From the NCBI GenBank assembly GCA_048938895.1, contig JBHLLU010000005.1:55527-119526 (forward strand): a stretch of DNA of 64,000 nucleotides, written 5' to 3'. The number at the start of each line of letters is the position of its first letter. The first letter of the stretch is position 1. Shown piece by piece: positions 27,124-61,888 of this stretch. Source of the stretch: Promethearchaeota archaeon (lineage in GTDB: Archaea > Asgardarchaeota > Lokiarchaeia > Sigyniarchaeales > SOKP01). The notes under the pieces are model-generated. The model was not told the origin of the DNA. It worked only from the letters and a program-made list of their open reading frames with translations, and did not search any database. Both the position numbers and the translations under genes were made by a program.

Positions 27124-27801
27124 ATGATCTTCAAAGAGAAAATATTGTCAGGAAGAAGTACTTATCTTAGAAAGAATAATTCTGAAAAATTGATTCTTAC
27201 CATAAATTCTAAATCCTTAGATAACATTTTTCTCATAAATGGAAATTCGTTCAAAACTGAAGAAATAAAAGATTCTGATTTAAAAATCAAATCTTATGAT
27301 TATTATATGATTTTTAATAATGGAAAAGAATCAATTGATATTTCTTATTATCTTGATATTTCAAATCACGAAATTGTTTATGATCCTTATGTATACGAAA
27401 ATTCGGAGAAAATTCTTTATACGGAAGACCAGTTCATTAAAAACTATGATATTCCAAAAGGCTATATTGACATTCTTTCTAAGTGGTATAGCTTTAAGTT
27501 TACTTACCCAGATTATAATCTGATCTTTGTAAGACCAGAATTTGGATTATCCATTCAAATTCATAAGAATAGAAATGAATTTTGGGAAATTTTAGAGGGC
27601 AACCCTATTATCATTAATGGGAATAAAGTTTATTATTATGTTGAAAGTGGTTCTAAATTCCAAAATAAAATAAATATGTTTCATACCGTTATCAATCCTA
27701 ATAAAGAAGCAGGTAAATTTGTTTTAATAAAAGAAAGATGGAACGGTGAATTTGATGAAAATGATATTATTCGTGTTTTTAATCCTAATCAATACTTTTG
27801 A
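27124..27801 (+). CDS. Cupin protein, type II mannose-6-phosphate isomerase-like C-terminal domain
   Basis: LSIQIHKNRNEFW and ENDIIR motifs. Confidence 0.7.
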   Translation: MIFKEKILSGRSTYLRKNNSEKLILTINSKSLDNIFLINGNSFKTEEIKDSDLKIKSYDYYMIFNNGKESIDISYYLDISNHEIVYDPYVYENSEKILYTEDQFIKNYDIPKGYIDILSKWYSFKFTYPDYNLIFVRPEFGLSIQIHKNRNEFWEILEGNPIIINGNKVYYYVESGSKFQNKINMFHTVINPNKEAGKFVLIKERWNGEFDENDIIRVFNPNQYF

Positions 27802-50088: not shown

Positions 50089-50181
50089 GGCCCTTGACGG
50101 TTGGAGTGGTCTCTGACGCTGGGCTTCAAACCCAGTTATCCTGCGGAGGGATAGGGGTTCGATTCCCCTCGAGGGCCGCCA
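50089..50181 (+). tRNA. selC: tRNA-Sec (anticodon UCA), 9/4 fold, CCA encoded
   Basis: 9-bp acceptor GGCCCTTGA/TCGAGGGCC, 7-bp D stem with TGGT loop, anticodon TCA at 50126-50128, long variable arm, 4-bp T stem, G73-CCA. Confidence 0.96.
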
Positions 50182-51800: not shown

Positions 51801-52481
51801 ATGGAAAACCGACTTTTATCACAATTTAACGGAGTTATTACTTCACAGTGGCTCTCTAAGTATATAGAGGAACCTTATGGTTCTTTAATCCCAAGAGAGT
51901 TGTTTGAAATCGCGTATCACACCTGCAATTCCGTGGCTATGAGGAATATTTATATAAAATTAGCATCTAGTGAAGAACAAGCAGGTTCTAAAGCTGTTTT
52001 TTACTCAAATACAAAAAAATTTACCTCTATAGAAGCCTTAGAAAAGGGAGTAAGAATTACAAAATACTTTAATCAAGGGGAAACCGGGGATAAAGTTGAA
52101 ACTGAAATTCATCCAAGTCTTAAAAAAAGAAAAGAGGTTTATAATTCGAAAGATCAAGACTTAAAGACCCAATTATTAAAAAGTATTTTAGTTGAGCGAA
52201 AACTTGATGAATGTGCTAATTTAGTAATGTTAAAGGGTAATAATCGAAAAGTATATTTTGCCATTGGGGATGCTAGAGAATCTGCTGCTGTGATCCCAAT
52301 CTTTATGGAAGCGGAAGGTGCTAGTTTGGTTCAATTGGCACTGAATAAATGGATGGAAACAGCCCAAAGATTGAATCACGAACAAAATTTCCCGGAGAAT
52401 CTAATCCCTGGTATTATTAAAAACCTTACTCAAATAAAAAGATGGCTTCTTGACCTAATTAGTGCTAATTTAGATAAGTAA
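51801..52481 (+). CDS. Hypothetical soluble protein
   Basis: 226-aa ORF with host-like codon usage; no motif recognised. Confidence 0.7.
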   Translation: MENRLLSQFNGVITSQWLSKYIEEPYGSLIPRELFEIAYHTCNSVAMRNIYIKLASSEEQAGSKAVFYSNTKKFTSIEALEKGVRITKYFNQGETGDKVETEIHPSLKKRKEVYNSKDQDLKTQLLKSILVERKLDECANLVMLKGNNRKVYFAIGDARESAAVIPIFMEAEGASLVQLALNKWMETAQRLNHEQNFPENLIPGIIKNLTQIKRWLLDLISANLDK

Positions 52482-52614
52482 ACTACTTTTTCAAATTATA
52501 ATTGATGCATCATATGCAAATATGAATGGAGAGAATATTCTTAGATATATAAAAAACCGTGAAATTGCGGTTTCACGAAGTTTTTGAATCTTGAAAATAA
52601 AAAGAATATAAATA

Positions 52615-52822
52615 TGGGCCATCGGGGATTTGTTCTGATGAGGGGAATCCCAATCATCAATTGAACCCCGGATTTCCTAGTCAAAAGGGATAATCCCTTT
52701 TTATCTCAGGTTTTTACTATCTCGGACAGTTCTTTTTATTGTATGTCCGATGATCATTTATAAGACCTGCGCTTGTTGACCAAGCTTTTAAAACCTTGTT
52801 AACCAGGCTAAGCAAATGGCCC
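52615..52822 (-). tRNA. tRNA-Ile (UAU) with four BHB-type introns
   Basis: Removing 52775-52799, 52712-52757, 52674-52704 and 52630-52660 gives a 75-nt cloverleaf GGGCCAT TT GCTT AGCCTGGTTA AAGC G CAGGT CTTATAA ACCTG AGATC CGGGG TTCAAAT CCCCG ATGGCCC A with all four stems fully paired. Confidence 0.88.
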
Positions 52823-53062
52823 TAATTATTACAAACACTAATTTACATTTTCTTATATCTTTTAATATTAATCTACTATTTATTTTAGTTAATTGTATAG
52901 CTATTAATCTTGTATGTGTTTATATTCTAATTAAATAAGAAAAAAGATAAATATTTTTTTATTGGTTATTTTTTTATTGATGTAATCTGTTATATTTATA
53001 ATTAAAGTAACAAAAAGAGACAATAGAAAATATTAGTTAAATTTTGGAAAAGCTGATTATCC

Positions 53063-53476
53063 ATGGCTGAAATGTTAACCGATCTTTTACAAAATATCTA
53101 TAAGCGTATAGCCCAGTTAGGCCAAAGCATCCAACAGTTGAATGAAAGCTTAAATTCACTCAACAAAAACATTGAAGATAAGATATCTAATTTAACACAG
53201 AAATTAGAGGAATTTTCTAATGAAATTAATGTTACCCAGACTAAGCATATAGATGCTGTGAAGGAAATTGGTGGGGAAACTACAAAAGAATTAAAGATAA
53301 TACAAGAAGGATTAGGATTAGAAGCACTCAAAACTCTTATTAAGAAACTAGAAGAATTTTCTAATCTTTCAGAAGGGATACTTAATCAAGACACCGTGAA
53401 TTTATTATTATCAGAAGCTATCGATTCCGTTAAAATTTTAAAAGAATCAGTCAATAAGGAAGAGGTCATAGAATAA
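53063..53476 (+). CDS. All-helical coiled-coil protein
   Basis: Heptad pattern throughout; no Pro, Cys or Trp. Confidence 0.75.
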   Translation: MAEMLTDLLQNIYKRIAQLGQSIQQLNESLNSLNKNIEDKISNLTQKLEEFSNEINVTQTKHIDAVKEIGGETTKELKIIQEGLGLEALKTLIKKLEEFSNLSEGILNQDTVNLLLSEAIDSVKILKESVNKEEVIE

Positions 53477-61789: not shown

Positions 61790-61888
61790 CGCAGACGGAG
61801 GGATTCGAACCCTCGAGTGCATTCACACACTGGCTTTCTGGGAATGTCCGCTCCAAGCCAGCGCCGTACCAGGCTAGGCAACATCTGC
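61790..61888 (-). tRNA. tRNA-Ser (GGA) with a 15-nt canonical 37/38 intron (61836-61850)
   Basis: Acceptor GCAGATG/CGTCTGC, G73, long variable arm, TTCGAAT loop; BHB central helix TTGG/CCAG. Confidence 0.92.

Follow-up and report, generated by a model that had tools for sequence, protein, structure and literature searches.

The question raised by this locus is whether a stretch of 208 nt, 133 nt of which would have to be cut out of its transcript, can be a working tRNA gene, and which tRNA it would supply. In the window, which is the whole 64,000-nt stretch of DNA that was analysed, it occupied the minus strand in a 580-nt gap between two plus-strand open reading frames (51801-52481 and 53063-53476). 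A preliminary description, made from the letters of the window, had proposed a tRNA gene split by four introns. Our results indicate that the locus is very probably a functional, single-copy tRNA-Ile(UAU) gene of a Loki-type Asgard archaeon, with four introns that would be excised by EndA and five exons that would be joined by RtcB.

The gene was read from 52822 down to 52615 as five exons and four inserts, and the coordinates were checked (Table 1). ARAGORN, applied to the exons joined by coordinate, named the 75-nt product tRNA-Ile(tat) and found 21 of 21 stem pairs formed. The anticodon loop CTTATAA had the regular length of 7 nt, with a UAU anticodon between U33 and a purine at position 37. 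The G+C content of the gene was 53%, against 31% for the genome. The positions and lengths of the inserts, their share of the gene and the perfectly paired cloverleaf left after their removal were all as the preliminary description had given them.

The AT-rich box GATATAAG upstream of the gene is a possible archaeal promoter. About 25-32 nt 5' of the orthologous genes described below, a box was read by eye as TTTATAAT or TTTATATT in nine cases and as ATTATAAT in one more. The T-rich tract on the other side is a likely transcription stop; such a tract began within the first bases 3' of the gene in 21 of 21 orthologues, although only 3 nt were visible for one of them (L010). Further downstream, about 25-60 nt 3' of the gene (window positions about 52553-52590, minus strand), a T run was preceded by a hairpin CGTGAAA...TTTCACG. 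Within 30 nt downstream of 9 of the 21 orthologues, GAT, TAT or GTT was followed by a CGTGAAACAT motif.

Table 1. Features of the interrupted tRNA-Ile(UAU) gene and its flanks, in window coordinates, with sequences read 5' to 3' on the minus strand (H helix, central helix of the BHB motif).
Feature	Positions	Strand	Description
Whole gene tRNA-Ile(UAU)	52615-52822	-	208 nt; position 1 to discriminator A73; CCA not encoded
TATA-like AT-rich box GATATAAG	52852-52860	-	about 30-37 nt upstream of position 1
Exon 1	52800-52822	-	23 nt: acceptor 5' strand, nt 8-9, D-stem 5' strand, D-loop to nt 21; conserved in 21 orthologues
Intron 1	52775-52799	-	25 nt at 21/22; H helix TGGT/GTCA; bulges TA/A and AC/A (slash, cut); inner helix CAAG/CTTG
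Exon 2	52758-52774	-	17 nt: D-stem 3' strand, nt 26, anticodon stem 5' strand, loop CTTATAA (TAT)
Intron 2	52712-52757	-	46 nt at 38/39 (from the helix register); H helix U33-U36 TTAT/GTAA; inner helix TCGGACA/TGTCCGA
Exon 3	52705-52711	-	7 nt: anticodon stem 3' strand ACCTG and nt 44-45
Intron 3	52674-52704	-	31 nt at 45/46; H helix CCTG (nt 40-43)/TAGG; internal 8-bp hairpin AAAAGGGA/TCCCTTTT
Exon 4	52661-52673	-	13 nt: nt 46-48, T-stem 5' strand, T-loop to nt 58
Intron 4	52630-52660	-	31 nt at 58/59, T-loop; H helix GTTC/GAAC; inner helix TGATGA/TCATCA; outer helix 3 bp
Exon 5	52615-52629	-	15 nt: T-loop nt 59-60, T-stem 3' strand, acceptor 3' strand, discriminator A
T-rich tract	52593-52614	-	directly after the discriminator; putative transcription stop

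To be a BHB motif, an insert must place exon nucleotides -6 to -3 before the 5' cut opposite intron nucleotides n-5 to n-2, with a 3-nt bulge after each strand. This register matches the definition in section 4.8 of the methods of a preprint on Asgard tRNA genes (bioRxiv 10.64898/2026.10.13.758758). All four inserts formed four of four central pairs in exactly this register, in agreement with the helices drawn earlier. The central helix of intron 4 was made of four Watson-Crick pairs, those of introns 2 and 3 of three Watson-Crick pairs and one G-U pair each, and that of intron 1 of two Watson-Crick and two G-U pairs. The chance of a full helix was 0.049, 0.091, 0.072 and 0.096 for introns 1-4 (joint 3.1e-5) in a model with random boundaries in the window, equal lengths and an equal number of product-preserving registers. 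These registers, which shift the cuts and leave the spliced product unchanged, numbered 2, 4, 3 and 4 for introns 1-4, and only those of Table 1 reached four of four central pairs. The cut of intron 2 was ambiguous in sequence because of runs of A; it could fall at 36/37, 37/38, 38/39 or 39/40, and the helix register alone selected 38/39. A cut at 38/39 gave the same product as one at 37/38. The statement that all four positions are non-canonical holds only formally, as intron 2 corresponds to the common anticodon-loop intron and lies one nucleotide off its canonical site.

The helices next to the central one were uneven. Intron 1 had an inner flanking helix (h') of 4 bp, and intron 4 had an outer one (h) of 3 bp and an inner one of 6 bp. 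In intron 2, an inner helix of 2 bp was followed by a one-base bulge and then by a 7-bp helix. In intron 3, the directly adjacent helices amounted to 1 bp (h) and 0 bp (h'), and the 8-bp hairpin was offset by 1 nt and 3 nt on its two sides. The precursor folded better than its shuffled versions (z = -5.26; none of 200 shuffles was as good), and its minimum-energy fold held none of the four central helices. Enforcing the central helix of introns 1, 2, 3 and 4 cost 10.2, 3.4, 1.6 and 2.1 kcal/mol, respectively, and the four together required 16.5 kcal/mol. Intron 1, with its two G-U pairs and the highest cost, is the weakest BHB motif of the gene, and the support that this folding model lends to the four BHB sites is lukewarm.

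A real gene whose intron map is partly wrong, with other boundaries, structures or registers and hence another number or placement of introns, would also fit the choice of registers, the poor energetics of intron 1 and the lack of adjacent flanking helices at intron 3. The T-loop intron was found at 59/60 (TTCA/TGAA) instead of 58/59 in orthologues, and a permissive solver returned seven alternative splicings of the locus that ARAGORN accepted, one of them of 74 nt. We consider such an error improbable, since the presence and absence of inserts in relatives fixed how long they are and, apart from product-preserving shifts, where they lie; in addition, full central helices were obtained at the registers of Table 1 only, and the count of four inserts is independent of the register.

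As had been expected, standard finders missed the gene. Unspliced, it received no ARAGORN call in a run on the whole window or in a run with -i on the locus, and the Rfam tRNA model gave no match at the gathering score or at E<=10 on 52450-53000. The sole ARAGORN call in the whole window was a tRNA-Sec gene at 50089-50181 on the plus strand (Rfam RF01852, 61.1 bits), from which the organism is expected to use selenocysteine. The only other tRNA in the window matched by the Rfam tRNA model was a tRNA-Ser(GGA) gene with one 15-nt intron at 61790-61888 on the minus strand. Over the genome, which is 98.7% complete, this model found only 26 tRNA genes, each with no intron or one. The same model could see the Ile gene itself where it carried fewer introns: the one-intron versions L120, L122, L124 and L137 and the two-intron version L133 from other members of the order were matched over their full length at 44.8-49.8 bits.

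A cloverleaf recovered by free removal of inserts may also arise by chance. The genome was searched with acceptor-stem seeds and cloverleaf anchors while BHB-like inserts could be removed freely, a permissive procedure in which the choice among alternative splicings was unreliable. Of 437 anchor triples, 134 gave formal cloverleaves, and ARAGORN accepted 17 of these, 16 with a mature G+C content of at least 0.50 and one decoy. Among the 117 in silico solutions with three or more inserts, this decoy was the only one besides the Ile gene to pass. About one chance cloverleaf per genome is therefore to be expected under such a search, and the cloverleaf alone is no proof of a gene. However, the decoy had 35% G+C, inserts of up to 109 nt (four in all) and 3098 alternative solutions, unlike the G+C-rich Ile gene, and the latter recurred in 20 genomes. 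Contigs from two independent studies spanned positions 52300-52783 and 52300-52780 with no gap, so misassembly does not explain the layout. The genome bin consisted of 174 contigs with an estimated contamination of 7.5%; the locus was nonetheless present in 22 of 24 congeners. An origin by chance or by misassembly is next to impossible in our judgement and, as far as the sequence data reach, refuted.

The same search gave a partial census of the tRNA genes of the genome. It accepted 32 genes, 10 of which had at least two inserts, while most had none to two. These counts are lower bounds because introns within nt 1-13, nt 61-73 and the anticodon stem were precluded by the design of the search. 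Many anticodons were still unaccounted for, and further split genes are therefore likely. As most genes contained few inserts, heavy interruption appears to be specific to certain genes, namely those for Ile(UAU) and Phe(GAA), and not genome-wide. The tRNA-Phe(GAA) gene (contig C144, 4063-4266, minus strand; positions 114-317 of locus L097) was the second four-intron gene of this genome. Its inserts of 39, 28, 30 and 31 nt were located in the D-loop, at 31/32, in the T-stem at 51/52 and in the T-loop at 59/60, with 4, 4, 3 and 3 of four central pairs, and its 76-nt product was accepted by ARAGORN. Matches to it were found in 15 of 24 congeners, and 12 full genes from 11 genomes carried differing sets of inserts. 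A solver solution with five inserts and another anticodon was ruled out for this gene, because the relatives showed four inserts and GAA.

Copies of the four Ile introns elsewhere in the genome were searched for with BLAST, and only short chance matches were found. The best one, a match of 21 of 23 nt to intron 1 on contig C37, was rejected as it lay inside a coding-like stretch. A tRNA-Arg(GCG)-like gene on contig C90 (about 27150-27330, plus strand; L098) contained two inserts, one in the variable region and one of 31 nt at 58/59. The latter was identical to Ile intron 4 at 21 of 31 positions and shared with it a GGGATTCCCC core, and paired changes preserved the inner helix, while BLAST alone linked the two by only an 11-mer. 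The two inserts may belong to a shared intron family, or the likeness may be due to chance.

The strongest evidence for the gene and its introns came from its relatives. A DNA search of 40 related genomes matched 22 of 24 from the same genus and none of 16 from other families. Twenty-five loci were fetched and yielded 21 full genes from 20 genomes; L020 and L023-L025 were partial and were left out. All 21 spliced in silico to 75 nt, with few differences, which were restricted to the D-arm or the T-loop, so that the products were almost identical while the loci were 72-93% identical. The inserts occupied five positions, at 16/17, 21/22, 38/39, 45/46 and 58/59 or 59/60. Two inserts were found in 3 genes, three in 13 genes and four in 5 genes, where the three-insert class takes in L018, whose two D-loop inserts were merged by the aligner. 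Four of the four-intron genes (L001, L004, L005 and L006) had one set of positions, and L013 had another. The introns at 21/22 and 38/39 were present in all 21 genes. The intron at 45/46 was present in 10 and cleanly absent from the others, the T-loop intron was present in 7, and the intron at 16/17 in 6. Introns 3 and 4 were missing to the nucleotide in close relatives; for example, intron 4 was exactly absent from genome G002, the match to which was 93% identical over query positions 3-180 of 241.

The helices of the introns were maintained across these genes to different degrees. The central helix of intron 1 was complete in 20 of 20 scored orthologues, with GTCA or GCCA as the partner strand. 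That of intron 3 scored 3 of 4 in four genes and 2 of 4 in three genes with the boundaries as drawn. The intron at 16/17 in L015, L017 and L022 scored 1 of 4 at the boundaries given by the aligner, but a TTAG/CTGG helix was seen by eye one nucleotide away. Its exon-intron helix was TTAG/CTAA in L013 and TCAG/CTGA in L019, which is a compensatory change. In intron 2, the inner helix covaried at successive pairs (T-A, A-T or G-C; C-G or T-A; G-C or A-T). These pairs were counted by anchoring on the conserved ACA/TGT, as the MAFFT rows were partly out of register. In G004 and G018 the helix was read by eye as ACAGACA/TGTCTGT, fully paired. The hairpin of intron 3 was retained among the orthologues with unrelated sequences.

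The genome encoded the proteins that such a transcript would need. Two EndA-family proteins of about 200 aa each were found, both with PF01974 and PF02778. The first paralogue kept the catalytic Tyr, His and Lys and, when aligned to 3p1z_B, also the Lys of the 'EKPR' loop, a residue that may widen the range of substrates of EndA. It was most similar to the crenarchaeal chains 3p1z_B (7e-35), 3ajv_B, 2cv8 and 2zyz_B. The second was closest to 1a79 and had Ser at the position of the catalytic His. Judged by these similarities, the pair represents the pattern of an (alpha-beta)2 EndA with a predicted catalytic subunit of crenarchaeal type. Enzymes of this architecture, like those of the epsilon2 type, are described as cutting non-canonical introns (PMC5829648). 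RtcB was also encoded (566 bits). The relatives of the EndA proteins at 70-90% identity were nearly all labelled Promethearchaeota or Promethearchaeia, i.e. Loki-type.

In the proposed pathway, transcription would start at the TATA-like box and stop at the T-rich tract to give a precursor of about 210 nt. The two-subunit EndA would excise the four short inserts by cutting both 3-nt bulges beside each 4-bp helix, and RtcB would ligate the five exons into the 75-nt tRNA. The central helices use separate exon nucleotides (17a-20, 33-36, 40-43 and 53-56), and all four BHB sites can therefore coexist. Because the helix of intron 3 occupies the 3' strand of the anticodon stem, formation of the mature stem should have to await the removal of intron 3. 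Likewise, the outer helix of intron 4 is a register-shifted T-stem, so the mature T-arm should need the prior removal of intron 4. These overlaps suggest, as a conjecture, that the introns are removed in an order.

The decoding role of the tRNA was approached through the enzyme on which the alternative way of reading AUA depends. In that alternative archaeal system, the agmatidine synthase TiaS acts together with a tRNA-Ile(CAU). The TiaS_FLD domain (PF08489) was found in none of 41 genomes of the order, five of them single contigs, whereas all four archaeal control genomes were matched. It was not found in the genome studied here either, although a domain missing from draft genomes is no proof of its loss. 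No second locus in this genome matched the mature Ile tRNA sequence, and ATA accounted for 431 of 12,439 codons (3.5%) in the long open frames of the window. As no TiaS was found in the order, the Ile tRNA probably decodes AUA, and with no second copy it is probably the sole AUA decoder of the genome, in a eukaryote-like arrangement. AUA appears to be read in this eukaryotic way, with a UAU anticodon and without TiaS, across the order. Among the papers searched, none mentioned TiaS together with Asgard.

The locus could alternatively be a decaying or inactive pseudogene that has collected insertions while another tRNA reads AUA. The gene is undetected by standard finders, and in a bin of so many contigs another decoder could have remained unassembled. 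Such decay is hard to reconcile with exons that are nearly invariant while the introns diverge, with helices that covary, with the lack of a second copy, with the failure to find TiaS in 41 genomes, and with the retention of the gene in 39 of 41 genomes of the family as judged by a 17-mer of exon 2. We regard a pseudogene as highly improbable and a functional AUA decoder as the far better account.

This 17-mer also traced the gene beyond the genus. Of 61 genomes of the order, 47 contained it with up to two mismatches, among them 7 of 14 in the sister family. Spliced alignment of 30 exon-2 loci gave 23 ARAGORN-valid tRNA-Ile(tat) genes, and for the other seven (L118, L119, L121, L123 and L125-L127) it gave no ARAGORN-valid product. 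An anticodon-loop intron was present in all 23 validated genes. The three genes from the sister family contained this intron alone, with a length of 47-49 nt, and the genes from other genera of the family contained two to four introns. As the sister family has one intron, the series runs from one to four. Four-intron versions were additionally found in G075 and in another genus (G069), and six relatives in total carried them. The genomes G012 (L137) and G070 (L138) contained a diverged tRNA-Ile(UAU), which was identical at 60 of 75 exon positions and in which one insert of 81 nt interrupted the anticodon loop in place of the two to four short introns; this gene may be an allele of different origin.

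In yeast, the intron of tRNA-Ile(UAU) guides the modification of U34 and U36. By analogy, one could imagine an order without the agmatidine system that reads AUA with tRNA-Ile(UAU) and keeps the anticodon-pairing intron because the precursor needs it, for example to guide modification of U34 and U36, with up to three further introns gained on top. We consider this scenario rather unlikely as a whole. If it were true, the order would offer a dated natural series from which the origin of archaeal tRNA introns could be worked out.

The preliminary description had also suggested that four introns in one tRNA gene might be unprecedented. Such genes had already been reported in other Asgard archaea, and the suggestion fails. 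In the tRNA genes of three Asgard families, a mean of 2.2 intervening sequences and 'up to five in a single gene' have been described (bioRxiv 10.64898/2026.10.13.758758), besides the tRNA-Phe(GAA) gene and the four-intron relatives reported here. According to the same preprint (October 2026), not one of the intervening sequences newly identified there has been demonstrated to undergo splicing in an Asgard cell. Another study of three Asgard genomes, which covered Atabeyarchaeia and Freyarchaeia, is reported to have found introns in 92-95% of the tRNA genes and several introns in more than half (PMC11291895). Like the Asgard genes described in the preprint, the Ile gene contains several BHB inserts of about 20-50 nt, many such inserts lie in the D-arm or T-arm and are partly missed by annotators, two EndA paralogues are present, and repeated gain is seen as presence or absence among relatives. 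The genome studied here is of Loki type, and the main text of the preprint names neither 'Lokiarchae' nor 'Promethearchae'.

Similar genes are found outside the Asgard archaea. The Thermoproteales share with the present lineage BHB introns at non-canonical positions and an (alpha-beta)2 EndA with an extra loop in the catalytic subunit; their multi-intron tRNA genes reportedly carry up to three introns. Four were found here, in a mesophile-like genome of low G+C content, and unlike in the Thermoproteales no intron copies were evident elsewhere, except for the weak likeness between intron 4 and the tRNA-Arg insert. The nuclear tRNA-Ile(UAU) gene of the red alga Cyanidioschyzon merolae is described as having three BHB introns, which lie in the D-arm, anticodon loop and T-loop and were shown by RT-PCR to be removed stepwise (PMC3728597), a mode of processing like the ordered one conjectured above. 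It is the same isoacceptor with introns in the same three regions, but it is eukaryotic, has three introns and is proven to be spliced, whereas the archaeal gene has four and is known here from sequence. A survey of 2018 listed UAU in 2 of 167 archaeal genomes, those of Korarchaeum cryptofilum and Nanoarchaeum equitans (PMC6000648). These two also use UAU and not an agmatidine-modified CAU as the AUA decoder, and the Korarchaeum gene has an intron as well; in the present case, the trait spans a whole order and the introns number up to four.

What is new here is modest and consists of the Loki-type lineage and the series from one to four introns in a single essential AUA decoder. Current understanding is not overturned, as EndA, the BHB motif and RtcB constitute the textbook mechanism. 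Because the only apparent AUA decoder is invisible to finders, these genomes seem to lack an essential tRNA, and inferences on completeness and codon usage are skewed. The findings extend the heavy interruption of tRNA genes to a Loki-type family, in which one essential gene with one, two, three or four introns in close relatives provides raw material for the study of intron gain and loss. They also point to a eukaryote-like reading of AUA, with a UAU anticodon and apparently no TiaS, in the archaeal group nearest to the eukaryotes.
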